A DNA stretch of 42,002 nucleotides. It comes from a virus. Taxonomy: Duplodnaviria; Heunggongvirae; Uroviricota; Caudoviricetes. The stretch is from IMG/VR virus record IMGVR_UViG_2563366918_000005. The stretch is one strand, 5' to 3'. Positions within the stretch are counted from its first letter, which is position 1. Each line of letters starts with the position of its first letter. The notes under the pieces are model-generated. The model did no database searches and was not told where the DNA came from. It was given only the letters and a program-made list of their open reading frames with translations. This document shows, piece by piece, positions 2,000 through 36,433 of the stretch. The translations under genes were made by a program, and so were the position numbers.

Positions 2000-2482
2000 C
2001 TATCTGGTCAGGGTGTCGTACTGTTTTTCACAGACTCTTCCGGCTTCGGCTGCCCGGTCAGCATACTCTGCCAGTTGTCTGTTTCTCTCGAGAGATTTAC
2101 TGAGCACGTCGGCAAGCAAAACTCCGGTGTCTGCGGCTGACGTCCCAGCGCCGACAATGGCGTTATACTGCCTGAGCTGCTCACGGATGGCAACGAGCTG
2201 TTGCTGCAACCGGCCAGCGCGAGCGGCAGCATCAAGAGCATCATTGCGCGCCTGGTCGATCCTCTGCTGCGCTTCACGTTCATTGATCGATTTCTCCTGT
2301 TCGTAGTGCTGACGAACTCTCTCATCTTCGGTTTTGCGGTCTTCTTTCGCCTGTGCATACCCGGCGTCGTACTGACGACTACCGTGTACATTCCAGGCAA
2401 CAACCCCTGATATGACCAGAACAGCAAGCACCGCCACGATAAGCAACTGTTTCCAGTATGCTTTTACGAATGCCCAGATCAT
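2000..2482 (-). CDS. i-spanin (Rz-like): N-terminal TM helix plus coiled coil
   Basis: 160 aa; TM segment [18 protein letters not shown] then charged coiled coil; start ATG overlaps endolysin stop (ATGA); last gene of the lysis cassette. Confidence 0.65.
2008..2244 (-). CDS. o-spanin (Rz1-like) lipoprotein, nested in the +1 frame of the Rz-like gene
   Basis: Internal start in track ORF 2008..2427 gives [13 protein letters not shown]… with lipobox LAGC; Pro/Ser-rich 78-aa product; fully embedded in the i-spanin gene. Confidence 0.6.
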   Translation of the reverse strand: MMLLMLPLALAGCSNSSLPSVSSSGSITPLSALGRQPQTPEFCLPTCSVNLSRETDNWQSMLTGQPKPEESVKNSTTP

Positions 2483-3108
2483 ACCGCCAGCACCTTACTG
2501 GCAGTGATGTACCGCGCTCTCCGGTCGTCGATGCCGTTCCTGCCACCATTGATAATCAAAGTTACACGTGCAATATCGCCGGTATACTTCATGCAACCTT
2601 TGCTGGAGAAGAACCACGCCGCGCTACGAGCCGCATATTCGTCCTGCGCTAACAGTTCAGGATTCTCCAGCAGGTCCACTTTCAGGCCGTTTCCGCAGTC
2701 ACGATAGTTATTCAAACCGGTAATCTGGATAAGTCCACGGCCTCGGTAATTCCAGCCGTCACCAGGGGAATTGTTCCCCATGCGTTTGCTGTACACCAGA
2801 TTGGCGATCGCTCGCTGGCGCTCGAGTGGCAATGGTGGTTCACCAGCACGGCGACCCAGTGCATTAGCCTGCCCCTGAGTGAGACGCCCAGCCCGAACGA
2901 AGTTAGCCAGACCGCTGACACTGTAGTTGAAATTCTCCTGCAATCTGGTGAAGCCCACAGATTCATGCCCGACCTGAGCAATAAACATTGCCAGATCTTC
3001 TGGTTTGCTGATACCAAACTCTTTCATCGCAGAAGTTATATGCGAGAACCAGCGTGCGGCCAGCGCCTCGCTAATACCAGCAGCTCGCTGGAATTGTTTA
3101 ATCTCCAT
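2479..3108 (-). CDS. Endolysin, glycoside hydrolase family 19 (chitinase-like lysozyme)
   Basis: Start at internal Met ([12 protein letters not shown]…) of track ORF 2479..3339; motif [10 protein letters not shown] typical of the GH19 catalytic region; sits between holins and spanins. Confidence 0.7.
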
Positions 3109-3406
3109 GTTTAGACCTCGATATTTTGAAAATCTGAACAACGTTACCGCGTGTTTTAATAACCGCGGCAAGCATGACAGCGTTGATAATGACCTCAGAT
3201 AAATCCACAGCCATTGGCGTGCGTAACCAGATTGCATAGACGACACGAACAGGAATACTGGCCGCAGCAACAATAAGGAAATAAGCAAGCCACCCTCCCC
3301 ATCTTCGATGTTGAGAGCCGTTACGCCGGAATGTGACAACGCGAATTGCTATGCCAGTACAAATAACTGCATTGGTGATAAGCAAAAAAAACTCATGCGT
3401 TACCAT
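3098..3406 (-). CDS. Second holin/antiholin-like small membrane protein
   Basis: 102 aa with about 3 hydrophobic helices; overlaps holin stop and endolysin start. Confidence 0.5.
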
Positions 3407-3809
3407 CGTCTTTTCTCCCCGGAATTAAATCGCGTGGATTGTCTGAACGGTGGTAGAGCCATATACCAATACGCACAGCGACAATTGCTGACACGAATGC
3501 GCCAGCAGAGAAAACAATACCTTTTTCAAAAGAGTCCTGCGTGATGGTAGGGATCAGGCTGGCTATGCCGATAAGAATTGATGCTGCTGGTTTGTAGAAA
3601 AGAAGTCCGCAGAGAAAGCTGAGCATCGACAAGAGTACGCGACGACGAATTGGATACTCTACCGCAGAGGTAACAAAAATTACCGCGCCAGCAAGAGCAC
3701 CGAGCGCCACCTCTGGCGGAACGCCTACGATAACCGCAGCAAGAGAGCTCACACTAAGCCATTGATTTAAAGACTCAGTTGTTATGTTAACCGACATAGC
3801 ACACACCAT
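3393..3809 (-). CDS. Holin
   Basis: 138 aa with 3-4 TM helices and charged C-terminus; possible dual-start motif M-V-C-A-M; first gene of the lysis cassette. Confidence 0.6.
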   Translation of the reverse strand: MVCAMSVNITTESLNQWLSVSSLAAVIVGVPPEVALGALAGAVIFVTSAVEYPIRRRVLLSMLSFLCGLLFYKPAASILIGIASLIPTITQDSFEKGIVFSAGAFVSAIVAVRIGIWLYHRSDNPRDLIPGRKDDGNA

Positions 3810-3972
3810 TTTTTTTGTACATATCGAACCTCTTCACTTACAGATCACCACACACAACAAACCATATATGTTTAACCATCAGATATTCTGAAATAACTAT
3901 CAATTCATTGGTTTTTGATGACAATATTCATAAACAACCATAAATGTAAGGCGGTTTATTAGTTGCCAAAAT

Positions 3973-6579
3973 TTATTTCCTGCAAACTCCAGATGATGTT
4001 AATCCATCAAAAATAACCTGCACTCTGGCAATAACAACATCAACTCCAGAAGTCGTTTCACTTGCATAACCAAGTTTTATTTTAGATACAATATCCTGAG
4101 TAAGTTCAGATATTTCAGTTTCTGCAATGTTACCAGAGGCCATGTGATTATCGTATGCCATAGAATGAATTCCATTATTGACATCGATTGAACTAGTATG
4201 TTTGTGAAAAATAGATGGGTTTACCTGAAACGAATTTGAACCGATAAGATCAGAATATACTCCATTCATCACTGCAGTACAGCGTGGAATATTATTATCG
4301 GTTATTGTCATATGCAGACGGTTACCAGTTAACCCCTCACCAAGTGTGACATAATACGCCAATTCTCCACCTGCATATTGTTTCCCCTCAACAATAACAG
4401 TAATCCCTCTTAATTTCTGATTAGCTAGCAAAAACTTATTACTGTCTATATAGCATTTATTTGCGGAACCAAAAACAGCCCCTTCTAAAATATCTGATGA
4501 ATAGGAATAAATAAGGTCACCTGAAACAAAGGAAAGAATATCAGATACGTTTCCTTTTTTAGATAAGTTAGGAGAATAGCTATTAACTATTTCATATTGT
4601 CCTGTGATAAAATCAAGGTAAACGCCATCAGTTTTCATCTCTTTAAAGAAAATGCTATTAAAGCATCCATCAAGAACCGGTGGATATATTCTAGAGCTTG
4701 CATAAGCTGTTGGGTGATTCTTATTATTACCACTACCAGGCGAATAAACATCTTCGTTAGTCATTGACTTTTTAAGCTTAACAGGAATCATCGGCTGCAT
4801 ATCAATTTTGCAGTTCCCTGAACCACCGATGCGAGGATAAAATAAACCACCAAACCTTACAATATTACTACTGAATAGTATTTCGTTATCGTTAAGTGTT
4901 ATCTCAACGAAGTTTCCAATAAGTTTAAATTCAACTGAAAACAAACCAAGTGGAGCAGATAATTTAACAATATTGCGCATAAAAACACCTACAGTCCCTG
5001 TTGATGCAGTATAGTGTGTGGTTTCAAAGGCAGAGCCTGTATATTTCAAGTTAATGAAATTATTATGGTATGAAGACAATTGAAATTGAATCCCAGAACT
5101 AAGGATTTCAATATCTACAAATTGAATCCTTACGGAGTAAGCATATGATAAATCTTCATATTCATAAGGCAATGTAACATCTTTTGAAATAGTTGCCCTC
5201 ACATAATTACCAGAAACCACATCAATCCCATCACGTACAGCATTAAAGTAACGATTAAAATCAATAAGCCCAGCGCCAACATACTGCGCATATGACCGAG
5301 TCCATCCTGCCATTGCGTTTCGTCCATTCTGAGCTTCTAAACTGCTAAATTCAGAGTCACTTGTGGTACTTGATGGGAGGATATTTGTACAAAAAATAAT
5401 TTCAGGCATTGAAGTAATATCATTCAGTTCAGCCATCAATTTAAAAAAAGTTTTCTGCGGGAAGTTACCAACATCCCAACCATCTCCGTCATTCATGCCA
5501 AAAGCAATAATAACAACATCAGGGTTAATATCACGAATGTAATCAATCCAGCGTCTGTTCGTGTCTGAATACCATGGGTACTGTGAGTTATAAGAAGTAA
5601 TTGCTGGTGTATCTTTTCCAAGGTCATAGTACCTCATTCCACCAATTGCTCTGTTAAATAAAGTAGAACTTGGGAATTTCTCTTGCAAAACTCTCTTAAG
5701 ATGAGCGGCAAAAATGCTTGATCGATCCACTGTGCTTATATTATATGGGGCACTTAAGCTGTCACCAACTAACACTATTTTTGAGTTAGGCCTTGATAAT
5801 CTCTCAAGTGTTTTAGATGTGACTAAACTGCAGGAATTAATGAACTGAGTACTATTTAGCATCTGTTCAAGTGTATCACCAAATCTGGTACCAACGTATG
5901 ATGATCCGTTGACACTTGCTAGCTTAAGGCATAAATCAGCAGTATCTGTAATTGAAAAAATAGGAACAGGACGTCCTAAACTGTCATACCCCTGAATTGA
6001 GTTTGCCCTAGAAGATGCTGATGCCATTTCGCTTACTATCTCAGGGAAGCGGAGTGTTTTAGATATGTTGCTGTTAATAACTCCTTTGATAGATGAGTCT
6101 GTATATTTCTTCGTGGAAGCGTCCTGAGGAAATAATGGATCATCAAGGTTACGAATACGATTGCCGAGTGCATCGTAGTAAGTGGCACTAAATGATGGTT
6201 TACGAAGAGCCAGCCGAGCCATGCTTTTGACTAACTGGATCAGCATCGTTAGCTTATCAAAAGCATCCTCATGCACTTCCGCAAAGAACTTACCCTGATT
6301 GCGCAGATCAGTTTCCTGTGTAACCGGTAGCTCTCGTGATATAGAAATCTTATAGCCATTGGCCAACGCCTTCGACAATATTACATTTCCACCATTGTAT
6401 CCTCCGGCCCCGGTAACTATATAATCAGTATCAAGAGTCAGTACGGTGATATTTTCATGAATATCAACAACCTGCACAATCAAATCAGATTTATTGAAAA
6501 CCCTAAAGGCATACGGAAACGATGTCGTAACGCCGTTACCGGTGTATTCGTTGTGGTCAACTTCGGTTGAGACCGTCAT
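3973..6579 (-). CDS. Tailspike/tail fibre protein with central SGNH (GDSL) esterase-like domain
   Basis: 868 aa; RBS GGAG 7 nt before ATG 6579; N-terminal motif YTGNGVTTSFPYAF; central KIVLVGDSLSAPYN and VIIAFGMNDGDG blocks of SGNH hydrolases; C-terminal Ser/Asn/Gly-rich region; distal two thirds look AT-rich. Confidence 0.7.
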   Translation of the reverse strand: MTVSTEVDHNEYTGNGVTTSFPYAFRVFNKSDLIVQVVDIHENITVLTLDTDYIVTGAGGYNGGNVILSKALANGYKISISRELPVTQETDLRNQGKFFAEVHEDAFDKLTMLIQLVKSMARLALRKPSFSATYYDALGNRIRNLDDPLFPQDASTKKYTDSSIKGVINSNISKTLRFPEIVSEMASASSRANSIQGYDSLGRPVPIFSITDTADLCLKLASVNGSSYVGTRFGDTLEQMLNSTQFINSCSLVTSKTLERLSRPNSKIVLVGDSLSAPYNISTVDRSSIFAAHLKRVLQEKFPSSTLFNRAIGGMRYYDLGKDTPAITSYNSQYPWYSDTNRRWIDYIRDINPDVVIIAFGMNDGDGWDVGNFPQKTFFKLMAELNDITSMPEIIFCTNILPSSTTSDSEFSSLEAQNGRNAMAGWTRSYAQYVGAGLIDFNRYFNAVRDGIDVVSGNYVRATISKDVTLPYEYEDLSYAYSVRIQFVDIEILSSGIQFQLSSYHNNFINLKYTGSAFETTHYTASTGTVGVFMRNIVKLSAPLGLFSVEFKLIGNFVEITLNDNEILFSSNIVRFGGLFYPRIGGSGNCKIDMQPMIPVKLKKSMTNEDVYSPGSGNNKNHPTAYASSRIYPPVLDGCFNSIFFKEMKTDGVYLDFITGQYEIVNSYSPNLSKKGNVSDILSFVSGDLIYSYSSDILEGAVFGSANKCYIDSNKFLLANQKLRGITVIVEGKQYAGGELAYYVTLGEGLTGNRLHMTITDNNIPRCTAVMNGVYSDLIGSNSFQVNPSIFHKHTSSIDVNNGIHSMAYDNHMASGNIAETEISELTQDIVSKIKLGYASETTSGVDVVIARVQVIFDGLTSSGVCRK

Positions 6580-6682
6580 GTTAAATCTCCAGATAGTCGC
6601 AGCACCCGTTGCGCCGCATATCTGGTTATTCTATTACCTGAAAAACCATATATGTATAGAAAGACTATAAATACCAATAGAT

Positions 6683-6699
6683 ATTACCTTTATGGTAAT
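6683..6699. promoter_or_regulatory. Operator palindrome ATTACCTTTATGGTAAT
   Basis: Perfect 6-5-6 inverted repeat in the divergent tailspike / ant-like intergenic region. Confidence 0.5.
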
Positions 6700-6735
6700 T
6701 TGCAAAACGTGCTGGATAGCAAACAAATTATTTGA

Positions 6736-6755
6736 TACTGTATAAATATACAGTT
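6736..6755. promoter_or_regulatory. LexA (SOS) box TACTGTATAAATATACAGTT
   Basis: Perfect CTGT-N8-ACAG with AT-rich spacer; about 20 bp upstream of RBS GGAG (6763-6766) and ATG 6775. Confidence 0.7.
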
Positions 6756-6774
6756 ATTGCATGGAGAAGATAAG

Positions 6775-7032
6775 ATGCAGCGGTATCACTATCCACTGGA
6801 AGACGGATTTACCGAAAGGATTCACACGCCGGGAGGCGTCAGGTCACTGGTGGAGGGATCGCACTTGATGAAATTACTCCGGGATCTCGATAAGGATGGA
6901 TTTAATGTCGATGGCCCACTTGCCGAACTGACTGCACTGATTAACTACGTCACCAGCTCACAGATGTCTATGCGGGATCTGCAAACACATCTCGACTATT
7001 GTGCCGAACAATTACGAAAACAAACCAGATAA
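6775..7032 (+). CDS. Small antirepressor-like protein (standalone homolog of Ant C-terminal domain); SOS-controlled candidate
   Basis: 85 aa from ATG 6775; aligns by eye with the C-terminus of the 7347..8039 product (HTPGGVRSLVEGSHLMKLL…LRDLQTH versus HSPSGVLGLTENSLLMNLL…LRDIQTH); preceded by the LexA box. Confidence 0.6.
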   Translation: MQRYHYPLEDGFTERIHTPGGVRSLVEGSHLMKLLRDLDKDGFNVDGPLAELTALINYVTSSQMSMRDLQTHLDYCAEQLRKQTR

Positions 7033-7062
7033 GGTTTGCAATTACCAAGTGGAGTGCTTATA

Positions 7063-7079
7063 TTTACCTTTGAGGTAAA
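7063..7079. promoter_or_regulatory. Operator palindrome TTTACCTTTGAGGTAAA
   Basis: Perfect inverted repeat of the same family, between the two ant-like genes. Confidence 0.45.
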
Positions 7080-7171
7080 TTTACATCGCACTCCTCTTGT
7101 GCCATAGTAATCGGGCACTGGCAAAATCCAGTGCCGGGATTGGTCTCCCGGATTACTACAGAGGCACATAT

Positions 7172-7192
7172 GCCGCATAAGCGGTTTTTTTT
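7172..7192 (+). terminator. Putative rho-independent terminator
   Basis: CCGC-ATAA-GCGG stem followed by a T8 run; a further hairpin lies at about 7112-7144. Confidence 0.4.
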
Positions 7193-7346
7193 ATGTGTAA
7201 AGCGCACCTATTCTATGGTGGGCTGTGTGGGGGCACCGAAAGGTGCGCCGGGTTCCTTTGTAGCCGGTAAGACCAACTCTGCACAGTTCACCACCATCTG
7301 ATTGGTCTCAGCGGTGGTGATTAACCTAACTACAAAGGTGATCGCC

Positions 7347-8039
7347 ATGAATACCAAACCTTCCATCTTTTCCTTTGAGTCATCCTGCCAGATCCGTATG
7401 TTCATGATTGACGGAGAACCTTGGTTTGTCACCAAAGATGTGTGCAATGCTTTGAATATTGATGTTACACAAGCGAGAAAACTTGATAAAAAAGGCTGGA
7501 ACAAAAAGGGGCTGTATTCAATACAGACCCCTGGTGGAATACAAGAACTATCCATCGTTTCAGAATCAGGTCTCTACATCCTTATTCTGCGTTGCAAAGA
7601 GGCAATGACTGAGGGAACGAGAGCATTCAGATTTCTTGAATGGGTTACAGGCGAGGTTCTTCCTCAGATCCGCCGCACCGGAAGTTACATTAAAAACTCG
7701 CTACCGCAGGAAGAACGCATAAAGATGGTTGCCGACCAGGTAGCCAACGCCACGGCGTCAGCAGTAATGCAGGCGATGAAGATAGAGAACAAAACCTACA
7801 ACGCCCCGCTGAAGCCCGGCTACCGCAGCCTGATTCATTCCCCGTCTGGTGTTCTCGGCCTGACGGAGAACTCACTGCTGATGAATCTGCTGAACCAGTT
7901 ACAGGAAGACGGGCACGACGTATCGGGCGCGGCGGCGGAGCTGACCACCATGTTCTGCTACATCGTCGGTGTGAGCAAATGCCTGCGTGATATCCAGACG
8001 CACGCGGAGTACATCAACGACAAAGCAGGGTTCTTCTGA
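7347..8039 (+). CDS. Antirepressor (N-terminal BRO-N domain, C-terminal Ant/KilAC domain)
   Basis: RBS GGTGA 5 nt before ATG 7347; N-terminus FSFESSCQIRMFMIDGEPWFVTKDVCNALNI matches the BRO-N pattern; C-terminal domain paralogous to 6775..7032. Confidence 0.7.
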   Translation: MNTKPSIFSFESSCQIRMFMIDGEPWFVTKDVCNALNIDVTQARKLDKKGWNKKGLYSIQTPGGIQELSIVSESGLYILILRCKEAMTEGTRAFRFLEWVTGEVLPQIRRTGSYIKNSLPQEERIKMVADQVANATASAVMQAMKIENKTYNAPLKPGYRSLIHSPSGVLGLTENSLLMNLLNQLQEDGHDVSGAAAELTTMFCYIVGVSKCLRDIQTHAEYINDKAGFF

Positions 8040-8103
8040 CGGGCGGCGGCACAGGGATGTGCCTTTAAATAATTCTGTACAGATTGCAGGTGAATAGCTT
8101 ACT

Positions 8104-8120
8104 ATTACCTCACGGGTGAT
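8104..8120. promoter_or_regulatory. Operator-like imperfect palindrome ATTACCTCACGGGTGAT
   Basis: Left half perfect, right half GGTGAT; lies upstream of the mini-ORF and the 8249 gene. Confidence 0.3.
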
Positions 8121-8156
8121 CCATAGCGATTAGGCACCGATACAGGAGGAGCCCAC

Positions 8157-8189
8157 ATGAGAAAATTTGACGAGTACGAAGGCGTTTAA
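8157..8189 (+). other. 10-codon mini-ORF (MRKFDEYEGV) with strong SD; leader-peptide candidate
   Basis: AGGAGG at 8144-8149, 7 nt before ATG 8157; stop at 8187-8189; followed by the hairpin at 8208-8231. Confidence 0.3.
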
Positions 8190-8207
8190 CATTCGGATAG
8201 TTTAATG

Positions 8208-8231
8208 ACGGGGCCATTAGGCCCCGTTTTC
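8208..8231 (+). terminator. Rho-independent terminator / attenuator hairpin
   Basis: ACGGGGCC-ATTA-GGCCCCGT stem followed by TTTT. Confidence 0.55.
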
Positions 8232-8248
8232 ATGTCTGGAGACAGTTT

Positions 8249-8788
8249 GTGTTAAGTGAAGAAATGCAATTTGCCATGGCTGTGGCTCAAATCGTAAGTG
8301 CAGTCGCGGTTTCGCTTGGCTTGTTCATAGCTATCGCTACTATTATTTATAATGTAAATACAGCGAGAAAAGTACACACTTCAGTATTCCTTGGTGAAAG
8401 CAGGTTTGATGTAGATTATAAGAAAGGCCTATCTACTATGCGCCGCATTCACGAATCGAACAAATCATTCCGCTCTTATATGTATCCAAGCAATGGGCAG
8501 GCTGATCTTACGGATGAAGAAAAGACAGAGAAGAGAGAAATAATTTACTGTCTAGGTTTCTACGAACGCATGGCTGTGAGCGTGAAGCGGAAAACTTATG
8601 ATGAGACCATGATTAAGGAAGTATTTTACAGCTCCGTTGTAAATAACTATCAGATTGCGCTACCTCTTATACAAGCCATTAGAGAAAAAGAAAACATAAA
8701 CACATATTTTAAAGAATATGAATGGTTGGCCACACGATGGAAGGATTGCCCATTGAAGGATAAATCCCCGTGGTACAAGTTTTGGTAA
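8249..8788 (+). CDS. Hypothetical membrane-anchored protein (AT-rich accessory gene; exclusion/defence candidate)
   Basis: RBS GGAGA 6 nt before GTG 8249 (alternative ATG 8264); N-terminal TM helix AVAQIVSAVAVSLGLFIAIATIIY then about 140-aa soluble domain; visibly AT-rich; followed by a terminator-like T-run at about 8789-8811. Confidence 0.55.
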   Translation: MLSEEMQFAMAVAQIVSAVAVSLGLFIAIATIIYNVNTARKVHTSVFLGESRFDVDYKKGLSTMRRIHESNKSFRSYMYPSNGQADLTDEEKTEKREIIYCLGFYERMAVSVKRKTYDETMIKEVFYSSVVNNYQIALPLIQAIREKENINTYFKEYEWLATRWKDCPLKDKSPWYKFW

Positions 8789-8882
8789 GCCAGCGCTGCG
8801 GGCTTTTTTTGTGGACGAAACAAAAGTCAGTGCTACACTCATTGACGCCACATTGAGGTGGCTTATAGATGGAAATTTCACA

Positions 8883-9044
8883 ATGAAAAAAGCATTTGCT
8901 GCACTGTTCGTTTTGTTGTCTCTGGTAGCTTCAACTCAGGCTTTTGCCGGTCGTTGTCAGCACGACAGCGATACTGCCGCTGACGGCTCCCGCTGCGGTG
9001 GGCGTTCTGCGGATTCCCGCCCGGGTGGCGGTGGCATTCGTTAA
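8883..9044 (+). CDS. Small secreted Cys-containing peptide (hypothetical)
   Basis: Internal start of track ORF 8811..9044: MKKAFAALFVLLSLVASTQAFA then a 31-aa Gly/Arg/Asp-rich region with 2 Cys; weak RBS. Confidence 0.3.
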   Translation: MKKAFAALFVLLSLVASTQAFAGRCQHDSDTAADGSRCGGRSADSRPGGGGIR

Positions 9045-9567: not shown

Positions 9568-12042
9568 TTATTGCGGAGTGACATCCTGAGGTCGCCACCA
9601 GTATGTCTGGTTAAACTCTTTCTTCGAACGTTGCTCCATTTTACGCAAATAACCTGGTGAAAAATACTCCTGCATCTGGTTAAAGATCATGTGATCGAGA
9701 GCCGCCTTTAAGTACCAGAGATTCGCACCTGGCATCAGACCTTTCCCCAGCTTGACCAGATCACCACCAGTCTGCTCATTCTTCCCTTCCACAGCATTTA
9801 ACGGTATGCCCTGAGCAATCTTCACTACGTCATCAACCAGACCAGCTACCGGGCCAAGCATCGACGCCAGCGCGCCGCTTCCGTACCTAGTGTGATCTGA
9901 CAATAAAAAGTCACCGTAAAGGCCAAGACCACCACCTTTCAGTAGAGCACCAAGCCAAAATTTAGCAGCATCTTCTCCTGTCATCTCACGAGGATTACGA
10001 CCAGACGCAAGGTCGTTAAGTTGCTGCGACAAAGCGCCAAGAATGGTCGTACTGGCAATAAACGTCGCAATATATGCCGCACGCCCACCAGCAGACGGCA
10101 TACCCATAGCGCGTGACCAGTGACGCATAACCACCGAGATAGGGAACGATTTAAACAGGAAAACACTTCTCGTTAATTCACCTTTCCATGTTCCACGCTG
10201 AATACCAGAACCGGTTATCAGTTGCTCACGTGCTCCCGGTGTAATAACAGCCATATCAACTTCTTCAGTTACGGCACCGAGCAGTTTACGCATTGCCTCA
10301 AATTTCACGCGTTCAGGCTCACCAAGATGTTTAACTGCTGAATCAGGGATACGCATAATGCTTTCCGGTGTCAGCATCGTATTATTACCGTTCCCCCAGT
10401 CCTCCTGTTGCGCCAGCTTCCATACGCTCCAGTCTGTGTCAGTAATTCCTTTGCTTTTCAGGATACGAAAATCAGAGTCATCGAGGCTACGAAGGTCTGG
10501 TGTCCGTGACACTACTTCTCCCAGGCTTCCCATCATGGTTACGCCATAGGCGCGCTTGTGCGCATCTGACCATGCTGTAAGCCCACTGGCACGCATTACC
10601 GCCGTTGCCGCCCAGCGAGACACTGACGGCCCCATATTATCCATCGCCCAGCGGTTAACGCTGCCAAGTAGAGATTCCATCGCCAGACCAGCGCGGCGCG
10701 CCCGCGCAAGTTCTGTACGGTTCGTTGGGTCCATAGCTTCAAGCTGGTTGCGGAATAACTGGTTCATTGGAAGGTTGGTAACCTTCGCAGACAGATACAT
10801 GGTTCCAAGATCAGAGAACGATGACAGCAACGCGGATCCGAGTCTGCTGGCAACCAGCCAGTTGCGGATATTGTCAGACCATCGCGCGATGTGCGGATTT
10901 GCTACAGGCTGTGTCTTTCCGGAAATAAAGTTGTACAGATTCTCTGTGTTGTTCGCCAGCCGCTCGACTTTACCGGTTTTACTCGGGTTAGCTGTTGCCG
11001 TTTCTGCCTTCACCTGATCAAGAAGAGAGCGGAAAACATGATCTGGGTTTGGGCCATATGTTTCCACCAGTGCAATATCTTTACTGATACCTTCCAGGTG
11101 ACCGACCATGATTTCCCATAGAGAGCGATCGCCATAAAGTTGCTGATATTGCAGATAGGAATCTGCATCTTTGAAATGTATCTGTCGTGATGCATTACCA
11201 CGGTTAGCACGTGCGCCGGAAATTCGCATTCCGGTATCAGTAAGCTTATTCAGCCCACCAGTAGCGATCGTGTTATAAGCCTCTCCAAGAAATGCAGACA
11301 ACTCGGCATCGTTCATCAGTTGTCCATCGGCTCGGATATAATATTTGCGATCCAGCTTACCTATAACATCGCTAACCCACTTATCCTTTGATACCGCCCC
11401 AACCTTTTCCATAGAATGATGTTGAGGGATCCCCCAGTTTTCGAGATAGCCAATGTCCCCGCCAGCATCATTAAACCGGCGGCGCAGTAGATCTGTCACT
11501 TCTCTCCACGCCTTAGCACCTTTTCTTGCTTTAGCATTGCCAGTATTTTGTCCTCGCATTTCATATACCAGGTCACGCACGCCAGCTTCATCTTCAAACA
11601 GGCCAAAAAAGCGAGGATCAACTGCTTCAAATGCCTCCTGCAATTGACTCAATGCATAATCACGAGTGGCTTTTGTTCTGGACTCAACAGAGAGGAAATT
11701 CGATTTACCGTCTGCATTAAAAGCAATAGTACGGTTAAGAGCGCCAAGTTTCCCATCAGCCCCTTGATAGCTATTGATAAATTTATCCAATCTCTGACGT
11801 GCGGCTATAGTGAGGGCCACACGACGTTTCTTTAATGCCGCTTCTCGCTGTAATTCTTCAGATGCCAATTGTGCTGCTCGATATAGCCGCTCTGATTCGG
11901 AAAGTTGTCTCCACGACATCGGGTCATCACGAGCAATGGAGCGCATATTTCGATAAATGCGGTCTTCAATGTTCTGTATTTCTCGCGCCGTTAACGTGCG
12001 CTGCGCCGCCTGCTGAACCGCTTGTATACATTCCTGTCTCAT
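9568..12042 (-). CDS. Large internal virion / ejection protein (T7 gp16-like position)
   Basis: 824 aa; last large gene of the virion operon; assignment by position and size only. Confidence 0.5.
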   Translation of the reverse strand: MRQECIQAVQQAAQRTLTAREIQNIEDRIYRNMRSIARDDPMSWRQLSESERLYRAAQLASEELQREAALKKRRVALTIAARQRLDKFINSYQGADGKLGALNRTIAFNADGKSNFLSVESRTKATRDYALSQLQEAFEAVDPRFFGLFEDEAGVRDLVYEMRGQNTGNAKARKGAKAWREVTDLLRRRFNDAGGDIGYLENWGIPQHHSMEKVGAVSKDKWVSDVIGKLDRKYYIRADGQLMNDAELSAFLGEAYNTIATGGLNKLTDTGMRISGARANRGNASRQIHFKDADSYLQYQQLYGDRSLWEIMVGHLEGISKDIALVETYGPNPDHVFRSLLDQVKAETATANPSKTGKVERLANNTENLYNFISGKTQPVANPHIARWSDNIRNWLVASRLGSALLSSFSDLGTMYLSAKVTNLPMNQLFRNQLEAMDPTNRTELARARRAGLAMESLLGSVNRWAMDNMGPSVSRWAATAVMRASGLTAWSDAHKRAYGVTMMGSLGEVVSRTPDLRSLDDSDFRILKSKGITDTDWSVWKLAQQEDWGNGNNTMLTPESIMRIPDSAVKHLGEPERVKFEAMRKLLGAVTEEVDMAVITPGAREQLITGSGIQRGTWKGELTRSVFLFKSFPISVVMRHWSRAMGMPSAGGRAAYIATFIASTTILGALSQQLNDLASGRNPREMTGEDAAKFWLGALLKGGGLGLYGDFLLSDHTRYGSGALASMLGPVAGLVDDVVKIAQGIPLNAVEGKNEQTGGDLVKLGKGLMPGANLWYLKAALDHMIFNQMQEYFSPGYLRKMEQRSKKEFNQTYWWRPQDVTPQ

Positions 12043-35463: not shown

Positions 35464-35694
35464 TCATGAGTAGAAGAAGTATGCCAGTTCTGCTTTTGAG
35501 CGCAGCCATTGTCTTGTTTTACAGGCTTTAAAAAGCCCATTCATCAATACTTTACCTGGCATTTTGCGCTTACCTGTTAAGTGAGTCTGGATATAGTGAC
35601 TCGTCGTTCCGGCTTCCTGTGCGAAGGCTTCACGCTCATCCGGAGTAAGTGCAAGCCAGTGCTTTTTGAAATCGAAATGTCCGTTATCGCTCAT
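35464..35694 (-). CDS. Cro-like small DNA-binding regulator (first gene of leftward early operon)
   Basis: 76 aa; divergent from repressor gene across the three-operator region. Confidence 0.5.
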   Translation of the reverse strand: MSDNGHFDFKKHWLALTPDEREAFAQEAGTTSHYIQTHLTGKRKMPGKVLMNGLFKACKTRQWLRSKAELAYFFYS

Positions 35695-35729
35695 AGCTAT
35701 TGCCTGATATTTATTTCAGATAATAAATA

Positions 35730-35746
35730 TTCACCCATAAGGTAAC
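35730..35746. promoter_or_regulatory. Operator (weak) TTCACCCATAAGGTAAC
   Basis: One mismatch in left half. Confidence 0.3.
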
Positions 35747-35760
35747 AAAAATCAAGGATA

Positions 35761-35777
35761 GTTACCTATGAGGTGCA
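35761..35777. promoter_or_regulatory. Operator GTTACCTATGAGGTGCA
   Basis: Left half matches family; right half degenerate. Confidence 0.35.
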
Positions 35778-35794
35778 TTTACCTGTTGGGTAAT
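35778..35794. promoter_or_regulatory. Operator palindrome TTTACCTGTTGGGTAAT
   Basis: Near-perfect; with the two adjacent sites forms an OR-like triple operator between cro-like and repressor genes. Confidence 0.5.
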
Positions 35795-35848
35795 ATTGCT
35801 TTAAATTGAATCATCTACTGATTCATATATGAGGCGATTTTCCAGAAA

Positions 35849-36433
35849 ATGAAAAGTATCCAGGACGTCCGCAGGCAAAATCTCAACGACTTGATCGACC
35901 GTGAATTCAATGGTGTTCAGACGCGGATGGCAGAAAAACTTGGAACTCAGGCAAATCTGGTAAACCGCTGGGCTCTTGGCAAGAAGGTTATCGGCGACCA
36001 GGTTGCACGAAAAATTGAAGCTGCCGCCAATAAACCCCGTAACTGGCTTGATATTGATCGCTCGCTTTCTCAGGAGGGTTTTCAGCCTGTCGGCCCGAGC
36101 GATATAGGTCAGCTGGCGGCTCACAACCTGGAACGCTGGATGAGCGAAAGCCGCGACCTTTCAACGCAGGGAAAACTACACCGCGCATCCGGCGTCGCCC
36201 AGGTGACAATCAGCCGCCTGTTAAACAATGAGGTCAGCGTTTCCATTTCCACCCTGGAGAATGTTGCATCCGCATTCGGGCGTCACGGCTATGAATTACT
36301 GATTCACCCGCACGACCCTGCGACCATCAACTATGATCGCTCGCGCTACGCATTGTTACCCGAAACCGAGAAAGCAAAGATCGAAAGTTACATTGAATTT
36401 GTCATCAACCAGAACGAAAAAAACAAACAATAA
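35849..36433 (+). CDS. Immunity repressor candidate with two HTH domains, no peptidase domain
   Basis: 194 aa; HTH-like segments (…QTRMAEKLGTQANLVNRWALGKK… and …LHRASGVAQVTISRLLNNE…); no Ala-Gly / Ser-Lys autocleavage module seen; sits between operator clusters. Confidence 0.6.
   Translation: MKSIQDVRRQNLNDLIDREFNGVQTRMAEKLGTQANLVNRWALGKKVIGDQVARKIEAAANKPRNWLDIDRSLSQEGFQPVGPSDIGQLAAHNLERWMSESRDLSTQGKLHRASGVAQVTISRLLNNEVSVSISTLENVASAFGRHGYELLIHPHDPATINYDRSRYALLPETEKAKIESYIEFVINQNEKNKQ

Follow-up and report, generated by a model that had tools for sequence, protein, structure and literature searches.

A spacer between two anti-repressor genes of a phiV10-like Escherichia coli prophage very probably carries a P1/P7-type RNA immunity cassette

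The stretch of DNA analysed here, hereafter the window, is the 42,002-nucleotide (nt) virus record IMGVR_UViG_2563366918_000005, and the element that it represents is a phiV10/epsilon15-like (Uetakevirus) prophage of Escherichia coli. Within the window, a spacer of 314 bp (positions 7033–7346) separates two open reading frames (ORFs), one of 85 amino acids (aa; 6775–7032) and one of 230 aa (7347–8039). An earlier note on this DNA, made from the sequence alone, had described the spacer as lying between two ant-like genes and as containing an operator palindrome, an imperfect hairpin and a T-run terminator but no ORF. It had further proposed, by analogy with phage P22, that a cis-acting or antisense RNA is made there. 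The evidence gathered below covers the RNA families to which the module belongs, its anatomy, its complementary and covarying sites, its synteny with anti-repressor genes, and how often the operator recurs and how well it is conserved. Taken together, it makes it very probable that the spacer is a complete RNA immunity cassette of the type known as immI in phages P1 and P7.

Both flanking genes are indeed ant-like. The product of the 85-aa ORF shows 87% identity with the protein annotated as Ant in Salmonella phage SPC32H and 43% identity with the C-terminal 74 residues of the 230-aa protein. The latter, which is the product of the regulated gene, matches the Bro-N domain of Pfam (E = 1.6e-13) and PHROG 130, ‘anti-repressor Ant’ (E = 3.5e-51). 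The Bro-N protein shows no homology to AnrP of Gifsy-1 (E = 3.4) or to Ant1 of P1 (E = 0.04), and since neither is homologous to it, the RNA cassette described below is portable and its cargo varies. Of 5426 complete E. coli genomes, 467 contain the spacer sequence, which is 100% identical in E. coli WP8-S17-ESBL-12; in the 20 records listed there is no annotated feature at this place.

The spacer contains matches to two curated RNA families. Rfam was searched with both strands of positions 6000–9000 and, at gathering thresholds, with the whole window; all matches in the spacer lie on the plus strand. The first is a full-length match to the C4 antisense RNA (RF01695, model positions 1–87 of 87), which scores 78.6 bits against a gathering threshold of 45, with an E value of 5e-15 when 3 kb were searched and of 7e-14 when the whole window was. 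The second is a full-length match to isrK (RF01394, model positions 1–77 of 77), which scores 74.7 bits against a threshold of 50 (E = 1.8e-15). The whole-window scan repeats both matches and finds no further copy of isrK or C4 in the window at gathering thresholds. The hairpin and the terminator of the earlier note, placed at about 7112–7144 and at 7172–7192, are the first and last elements of the IsrK-type leader: the former, described as a 13-bp imperfect hairpin, consists of a perfect 8-bp stem with imperfect flanks, and the latter is a GC stem followed by eight Ts. What the note had missed is C4, the largest structured element of the spacer, together with the target sites at 7302–7338. 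The features of the spacer are collected in Table 1, alongside the corresponding elements of P1 as annotated in GenBank.

Table 1. Elements of the spacer module in the window and their annotated counterparts in P1 (P1 coordinates are those of locus L126)
Feature	Position	Strand	Sequence or structure	Basis
Upstream promoter-like site (prediction only)	7036–7064	+	TTGCAA, 17 nt, TATATT	consensus scan, 9/12 matches
Operator palindrome, putative prophage-repressor site	7064–7078		TTACC-TTTGA-GGTAA	motif count, conservation
Leader/C4 operon promoter	7080–7108	+	−35 TTTACA, 17 nt, extended −10 TGcCATAGT	consensus scan
IsrK-family leader small RNA (a1b1 leader)	7115–7191	+	hairpin 1, hairpin 2, linker, intrinsic terminator	Rfam RF01394
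Leader hairpin 1	7114–7135 (7114–7121 with 7128–7135)	+	perfect 8-bp stem	repeat finder
Leader hairpin 2, directly after hairpin 1	7135–7150 (7135–7139 with 7146–7150)	+	5-bp stem	Rfam fold
a1, hairpin-2 loop	7140–7146	+	TTGGTCT, complement of a'	complementarity search, repeat finder
b1, single-stranded linker	7156–7164	+	CTACAGAGG, complement of b' with one G-U pair	complementarity search
Intrinsic terminator	7172–7192 (stem 7172–7185)	+	GCCGC-ATAA-GCGGT, then T8	terminator scan
C4 antisense RNA gene (Rfam match extent)	7211–7298	+		RF01695
b', 12-nt loop of C4 hairpin 2	7255–7263	+	CCUUUGUAG	fold, complementarity search
a', single-stranded C4 junction	7270–7276	+	AGACCAA	fold, complementarity search
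Alternative hairpin, unprocessed transcript	7288–7320 (C4 3' strand 7288–7295 with 7313–7320)	+		repeat finder, covariation
a2, first target site in ant leader	7302–7308	+	TTGGTCT	complementarity search, repeat finder
b2, second target site	7330–7338	+	CTACAAAGG	complementarity search, repeat finder
Regulated gene, 230-aa anti-repressor	7347–8039	+	N-terminal Bro-N and C-terminal domain related to SPC32H-type Ant	Pfam, PHROG
P1 Oc4 operator	18141–18157			GenBank
P1 P2c4 promoter	18156–18184			GenBank
P1 P1c4 promoter	18196–18224			GenBank
P1 a1	18256–18262			GenBank
P1 b1	18270–18277			GenBank
P1 c4	18344–18420			GenBank
P1 a2	18424–18430			GenBank
P1 b2	18453–18460			GenBank
P1 icd	from 18471			GenBank

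In the fold of the C4 sequence, two hairpins are enclosed by an outer stem of 17 bp. When the annotated ends of P1 C4 are aligned onto the window, the predicted mature RNA spans 7217–7295 (79 nt) and has a tRNA-acceptor-like stem. Its predicted 5' G is the G of a conserved AUG, and its 3' end is ACC, which is followed by A7296 to give a tRNA-like ACCA. Two segments of this RNA, a' and b', are each complementary to two sites, one in the IsrK-type leader (a1 and b1) and one in the ant leader (a2 and b2). Here, a' pairs perfectly with a1 and a2 (7/7 positions for a':a2), and b' pairs with b2 by nine of nine Watson–Crick pairs. The b2 site overlaps the Shine–Dalgarno sequence of ant, AAAGGTG, and ends 8 nt 5' of the ATG at 7347. 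The leader and ant-leader copies of the sites are also visible as direct repeats, GATTGGTCTC and ACTACA[G/A]AGG, each of which is present twice. Across the 42 kb of the window, the composite motif TTGGTCT-N(5–30)-CTACARAGG has exactly three occurrences, as opposed to 0.00 in shuffles; they are a1b1, the reverse complement of C4, and a2b2.

The duplex energies are −14.1 kcal/mol for b':b1, −12.0 for b':b2, and −9.2 for both a':a1 and a':a2. These energies were calculated on loop segments because RNAcofold, which handles nested structures, cannot represent loop–loop contacts; RNAduplex applied to long segments gave messy pairings, and a search for contiguous complementarity was used instead. In the fold of the full-length transcript, a1 and b1 are paired with a' and b' in cis. 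The plus strand folds with a z-score of −4.9 and the minus strand with one of −4.5, the latter being no surprise, since the complement of a structured RNA will fold as well. In the C4 stems, several G-U pairs are conserved that on the minus strand would be A-C mismatches, and so the plus strand is the RNA strand.

The cassette was also compared across modules. More distant copies are found in Stx phages, Gifsy-1 and APSE, and in phages of Hafnia, Klebsiella, Enterobacter and Actinobacillus. By Rfam, isrK is followed by C4 20–30 nt later on the same strand in all 19 of the homologous loci that were fetched, and where the records are annotated, the next gene after the module bears an Ant/anti-repressor, Bro-N, Rha or Ash name. 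A MAFFT alignment of 25 modules, including those of P1 and Gifsy-1, lines up the promoter boxes, both leader hairpins, the terminator, C4, a2, b2 and the ATG. Conservation of RNA structure in relatives, which the earlier note had proposed as a check, is seen in this alignment: 96.5% of the cells in the C4 fold are paired, and compensatory changes, on both sides of the pair, occur at 16 of the 27 pairs. In controls, none of 500 shuffles was as good, and slid alignments gave 33–54% paired.

The target sites covary with C4 as well. In the 25 modules, b' occurs in about 20 sequence versions, and the module's own b1 and b2 change with each. The longest cognate complement averages 8.0 nt at b1 and 9.2 nt at b2, against 5.4 and 6.0 nt for non-cognate combinations. 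For a', of which there are nine specificities, a cognate partner of 6–9 nt (median 7) is present at both a1 and a2 in every one of the 25 modules. The phiV10 module, for example, has ACGCCAA as a' and CCUUUUAG as b'. In addition, the 8-bp alternative helix that joins the 3' strand of C4 to the ant leader is 96% paired across the modules and has compensatory changes, with slid controls at 32–75%. This helix would compete with the outer stem of C4 in the unprocessed RNA and would place a2 in a hairpin loop. No description of it was found in the literature examined.

Further modules were sought among IMG/VR records. A scan with the pattern GCGCCGGNTTN10CCGGT returned at least 120 stretches, most of which are chance matches; by nhmmer (E ≤ 0.01), the module is present in seven of the stretches listed (L014, L021, L083, L087, L099, L105 and L120). 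Two of these carry more than one copy. L083, an IMGVR_UViG record, has four tandem IsrK–C4 modules about 850 bp apart (2290–5110), with three a and four b specificities, and the aligned ATG after each b2 opens a frame beginning MATxPT(Q), as in the Hafnia yong2 and PhiR47_1 modules. L099 has two modules, at 3796–4035 and 10373–10613. These look like arrays of independently RNA-gated genes.

The module has a predicted promoter of its own. The leader promoter ends 6 nt 5' of the first base of the isrK model (7115), and its start is predicted at about G7115, which is a prediction and not a mapped start. It aligns with the TTGAC and TATAGT boxes of the 24 other modules, including the annotated P1c4 (P51b) promoter of P1. 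Consensus matches of this kind are not rare, as 3.6 promoters and 1.9 terminators are expected in shuffles of the 2-kb region. The leader terminator is kept in all 25 aligned modules, and P1 has a hairpin and then a T-rich run (TATTTTTG) at the aligned position, between b1 and c4. As it lies 3' of the leader promoter, this terminator cannot serve the upstream gene alone.

The operator palindrome, which the earlier note had placed at 7063, is present one position further on, with the sequence given in Table 1, and extends to TATATTTACCT/AGGTAAATTTA at 7059–7083. It lies between two promoter-like sites, abutting the −10 box of the upstream one and separated by a single nucleotide from the −35 box of the leader promoter. 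Allowing up to one mismatch, TTACC-N5-GGTAA occurs 15 times in the window against 0.73 expected, and the copy upstream of the leader promoter keeps its half-sites unchanged in five relatives (from E. coli, Enterobacter and Klebsiella), among which its 5-nt spacer differs. Three copies of the operator lie in the 154-bp region 35695–35848, between a divergent gene for a 76-aa protein (35464–35694, minus strand) and a gene for a 194-aa HTH_3 protein (35849–36433, plus strand). This layout is typical of a repressor/cro switch, which the region probably is in the prophage, and the regulon of the repressor is probably defined by the motif. Further sites are seen at, for example, 25637, 29951, 33410, 33472, 36491 and 36553. 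From its multiplicity and conservation, the palindrome at 7064–7078 is very probably a real operator, with the prophage repressor as its putative ligand. By analogy with P1, the promoter-like site upstream of it may correspond to the repressor-controlled P2c4 (P51a).

The closest well-studied relative is the immI region of P1, where the same elements occur in the same order: operator (putative in the window), promoter, a1, b1, a hairpin with a T-run, C4, a2, b2 with a Shine–Dalgarno sequence, and an ATG. The distances also agree. From the end of the −10 box to a1 there are 32 nt in both; the a1–b1 gap is 7 nt in P1 and 9 nt in the window, the a2–b2 gap 22 and 21 nt, and the distance from b2 to the ATG 10 and 8 nt. 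The C4 fold of the window is P1-like, with b' in the loop of hairpin 2, a' in the junction and an acceptor-like stem with 3' ACC. In both phages the cassette precedes an anti-repressor gene. The P1/P7 region is represented in Rfam by RF01695 and RF03163 (clan CL00128). P1 C4 is processed by RNase P. In P1 genetics, C4 is a trans-acting repressor that sets the heteroimmunity of P1 and P7 (P1 annotation; review PMC12197685).

There are also differences from P1. The a'/b' specificity is AGACCAA/CCUUUGUAG in the window and CUGUCAA/UCACUAAC in P1. In the window b2 covers the ribosome-binding site of the anti-repressor itself, whereas in P1 it is that of the leader gene icd, whose translation C4 targets directly and on which ant expression depends; no icd-like gene, that is, no small ORF between b2 and ant, is present in the window. 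The Bro-N anti-repressor is unrelated to P1 Ant1. The terminator after b1 is strong in the window, with a GC stem and then T8, unlike that of P1. The P1 operator is a C1 operator, while the putative TTACC-N5-GGTAA operator of the window would serve a lambdoid-style helix-turn-helix (HTH) repressor; it parallels the C1 operator (Op51/Oc4) at the P1 c4 promoter, with binding predicted from the motif. Finally, the window is an integrated podovirus-type prophage and P1 is a plasmid prophage. Satellite phage P4 offers a further likeness. There, the CI RNA with seqA and seqC likewise comes from the leader of the operon that it controls, with complementary sites on both sides in the same transcript, and in their account of the locus the Gifsy-1 authors cite it as a structural analogue (PMC4825925). 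As described in the same account, P4 CI works by ending transcription of the replication operon prematurely and not by occlusion of an anti-repressor ribosome-binding site (PMC4825925). No P4-type Rfam family was matched in the 3-kb or whole-window searches.

A second relative has been studied under other names. By sequence comparison, the isrK-orf45/STnc1160-anrP locus of Salmonella Gifsy-1 is homologous to the spacer module; in the Gifsy-1 sequence (L122), isrK lies at 1995–2071, C4 at 2097–2180 and anrP begins at 2235. The two share a homologous leader, C4 20–30 nt downstream of it, a read-through architecture and a b2 site at the ribosome-binding site of the downstream anti-repressor. According to the published results on that locus, the downstream anti-repressor is expressed from the isrK promoter, the mRNA that reads through is silent at the level of translation, and a stable processed RNA, STnc1160, arises from downstream of IsrK (PMC4825925). 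In the same results, IsrK supplied in trans raises translation of anrP more than 100-fold and needs an intact a1 to do so, and translation of orf45 contributes to anrP expression (PMC4825925). In the parts of that paper that deal with the locus, Hfq binding and trans-activation of anti-repressor translation are properties of Gifsy-1 IsrK, and they are known for it only (PMC4825925).

The mutations published for Gifsy-1 include the compensatory pairs G28A/C162U and G31A/C159U (PMC4825925 Table 1; Hershko-Shalev et al. 2016). When the mutations reported there are mapped, with the transcription start at L122:1995, all base identities are right and all fall in defined elements of the module. G28 and G31 lie in a1 and C159 and C162 in a', such that G28 pairs with C162 and G31 with C159; G114 is paired with C175 in the outer stem of C4; and orf45 has as its first AUG (position 107) the one that is conserved in the 5' strand of C4. 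The Gifsy-1 results therefore support by experiment, in a homologous module, both the contact between a1 and a' and the control of the downstream anti-repressor by RNA. The two loci differ in that the a and b specificities are not the same, that the window has no isrJ downstream and no Q antiterminator gene upstream, that its anti-repressor is not homologous to AnrP, and that it lacks an equivalent of orf45, whose stop overlaps the start of the anti-repressor in Gifsy-1. In its results and discussion of the locus, the Gifsy-1 paper draws the comparison with P4 CI, seqA and seqC and does not mention P1 C4 (PMC4825925), and a 2025 review lists IsrK and c4 as separate systems (PMC12197685).

From these relatives a working scheme can be drawn for the prophage, in which the processing of C4, the repression of translation, the polarity through Rho and the direction in which the leader acts are carried over by homology. 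The sigma-70 promoter, flanked by the putative repressor operator and partly under repressor control, would start an RNA at about 7115. Most transcripts would end at the leader terminator, giving an IsrK-type RNA of about 77 nt that displays a1 and b1. The RNA that reads through would contain C4, which would be excised, with its 5' end made by RNase P as in P1, to leave the tRNA-like RNA of about 79 nt (approximately 7217–7295). Through b' in its loop and a' in its junction, C4 would then pair with a2 and b2 on any transcript that carries the ant leader. Such pairing would cover the Shine–Dalgarno sequence of the Bro-N ant gene and block its translation, and the untranslated message would probably be terminated by Rho, as in P1. 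In this way the anti-repressor would be kept off in the lysogen, and so would that of a superinfecting phage whose a/b specificity is the same. The leader sites a1 and b1 would bind C4, whether in cis as part of the read-through transcript or in trans from the released short RNA, and would modulate or counteract it, in the manner described for IsrK in the Gifsy-1 locus results.

P22 encodes sar, a cis-encoded RNA from the opposite strand, and also controls its ant gene by the Mnt and Arc proteins. The P22 analogy of the earlier note needs to be weighed against the cassette. An opposite-strand RNA like sar would run across the intergenic region and the ant ribosome-binding site and pair perfectly with the ant mRNA, and the setting does recall P22 immI: the anti-repressor genes are beside the tailspike gene, and the role would be the same, namely an anti-repressor kept silent in the lysogen. 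The minus strand also folds well, although the complement of any structured RNA is expected to do so. The strand evidence speaks against it, however. A consensus scan found no promoter-like or terminator-like site on the minus strand of 7033–7346, the promoter and the T-run terminator are on the plus strand, the Rfam matches are confined to that strand although both were searched, and the conserved G-U pairs would be A-C mismatches on the other. In addition, Pfam and PHROG searches gave no match to Arc or Mnt; the upstream flank is instead occupied by the SPC32H-type Ant, so that neither P22 feature is found in the window. A sar-type RNA was rejected on the strand evidence and is highly improbable. 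An antisense RNA gene and cis-acting RNA elements are present, as the earlier note had suggested, but the mechanism that they point to is that of P1/P7 C4, an RNA whose gene lies upstream of its target on the same strand and which acts in trans by way of two short loop sequences. Even less credible, to the point of being barely conceivable, is that the spacer holds ordinary punctuation only, namely a terminator that serves the upstream gene and a promoter and an operator that serve ant, the hairpins having no function as RNA. One terminator-like and two promoter-like sites were indeed found, but the terminator is 3' of the promoter, the Rfam matches have E values of about 1e-15, and both the helices and the three-way targets covary.

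The spacer might also be read as encoding a small protein or leader peptide, an ‘orf45’ or ‘Ash family protein’, coupled to ant, with the conservation being that of a protein. The conserved AUG at 7215 opens a frame of 28 codons, the peptide matches Pfam Phage_ASH (PF10554) and several PHROGs, the results reported for Gifsy-1 give orf45 translation a part in anrP expression (PMC4825925), and several records annotate coding sequences (CDSs) across the module. The Pfam match is however 22.5 bits, below the cut-off of 26. The length of the frame differs widely among the 25 modules, between 14 and more than 53 codons, with many end positions and in all three frames relative to the downstream gene, and the substitutions are compensatory for RNA pairing. 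In the window the frame stops at 7299–7301, 48 nt 5' of the ant ATG, which makes translational coupling impossible there, and the AUG belongs to the invariant 5' strand of the acceptor-like stem of C4 and in P1 lies at the mature 5' end of a non-coding RNA. ORFs of 47–60 aa can be called mechanically on both strands of the spacer, but the only one that recurs is conserved in neither length nor frame in the 25 modules, so that the statement of the earlier note that there is no ORF is right in substance. With its ORF unconserved, a protein-coding reading was rejected, and it is very unlikely. As a side observation, CDSs run across the IsrK/C4 module in L127 (988–1671), L131 (825–1973) and L133 (743–1885), under names such as ‘Ash family protein’, ‘Rha protein’ and ‘putative antirepressor’. 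These are probably spurious N-terminal extensions, and judged by the sub-threshold Phage_ASH match, some ‘Ash family’ annotations and part of PF10554 may be the translated C4 RNA gene.

A different use of the same RNAs follows from Gifsy-1, in which the short leader acts in trans to remodel its own read-through mRNA and turn on ant translation, and the C4-like segment is mainly a structural element in cis, not a diffusible repressor. The full-length fold of the window, with a1/b1 paired to a'/b' in cis, is like the published ‘structure A’, and the reported locus results add that activation of anrP by IsrK in trans is lost in a1 mutants and that extra STnc1160 is no antagonist of IsrK (PMC4825925). 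Set against this are the covariation of a2/b2 with a'/b' over the 25 modules, which the cis-remodelling model as presented for the locus neither uses nor explains, the P1 genetics, in which C4 represses in trans (PMC12197685), and the absence from the window of the orf45 coupling that the model requires. As an account that would replace C4 repression we consider it unlikely, but the cis-remodelling is largely compatible with the P1/P7-type cassette and probably describes the derepression arm of the module.

Several points nevertheless weigh against the cassette as we read it. The c4-a1b1 model (RF03163) matches at 7102–7154 (plus strand) with 39.9 bits, below its gathering threshold of 46.7, although the overlapping isrK match covers the same sequence above threshold. 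RNAcofold of the mature C4 with the leader or with the ant leader gave a ddG of about 0, no better than with shuffled targets, which is to be read with the limit on loop–loop contacts noted above. Without a coupling leader ORF such as icd of P1 or orf45 of Gifsy-1, the details of derepression may differ. As published for the Gifsy-1 locus, co-expressed STnc1160 did not counteract the toxicity of IsrK (PMC4825925), so that a simple view of C4 as repressor and the leader as decoy is, on those results, unproven even in the homologue. Finally, promoter use, terminator efficiency, C4 processing and repression are for this prophage inferred by analogy.

The surroundings of the cassette bear on how it could be switched. 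A near-consensus LexA box (CTGTATAAATATACAG) is located at 6738–6753, 5' of the small ant gene (ATG 6775), and a further TTACC-N5-GGTAA operator at 6684–6698 is also 5' of this gene. SPC32H-type Ant is presumed to be under LexA control, in keeping with the box seen in the sequence. SPC32H has the same LexA box and operator, but there ant is followed directly by a divergent membrane-protein gene, and thus SPC32H lacks the block made up of the IsrK/C4 module, the Bro-N ant gene and a DUF4760 gene. The prophage has two anti-repressors with a common C-terminal domain, of which one is probably SOS-controlled and the other very probably RNA-controlled. No terminator was found between the two genes, apart from the module's own leader terminator, and read-in from the small ant gene is therefore possible. 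A self-contained RNA toggle can be suggested, tentatively and with more doubt than confidence. The terminator would set the ratio of decoy, the short a1b1 leader, to C4, which is made by read-through only; the decoy would titrate C4 and license translation of the anti-repressor; and the inputs would be the repressor, through 7064–7078, and SOS-induced read-in from the LexA-controlled small ant gene.

Other features of the neighbourhood were noted in passing. The DUF4760 gene (8249–8788, 179 aa, E = 8e-31), directly 3' of the Bro-N anti-repressor and part of the block missing from SPC32H, is a candidate moron or accessory gene. On the other side, the module is adjoined by a tail-fibre or tailspike gene (3973–6579, minus strand; 868 aa), whose product is named SGNH/GDSL hydrolase family protein by RefSeq and whose homologues are annotated as tail fibre in phiV10 and as tailspike in SPC32H; its receptor-binding part may carry an esterase-type enzymatic domain. 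About 2 kb past the end of this gene lies a match to the Hfq-binding small RNA STnc490 (RF01405; 1687–1810, minus strand), with 146.4 bits against a gathering threshold of 56. A tRNA-Arg gene (anticodon TCT) is present in the prophage region at 25974–26050, with operator-like sites on either side (25637 and 26254).

The module is unannotated here, yet Rfam has curated families that include it, and work on P1/P7 and on Gifsy-1 has addressed its mechanism, so that the kind of system is already known. The main value of the finding is in annotation and in joining the IsrK and C4 literatures: in terms of a P1-type module, Gifsy-1 IsrK is the a1b1 leader and ‘orf45’/STnc1160 is the C4 RNA, which offers a simpler frame for that work. 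If the toggle is true, ‘IsrK’, ‘orf45/STnc1160’ and P1 ‘c4/a1b1’ would be one system, and if it is wired to both inputs, the prophage would have a two-anti-repressor induction circuit. For phiV10-like prophages, the cassette would explain the silence of the second anti-repressor, and more broadly it predicts RNA-based heteroimmunity classes, defined by a/b specificity, among Uetakevirus, Stx, Gifsy and APSE phages.

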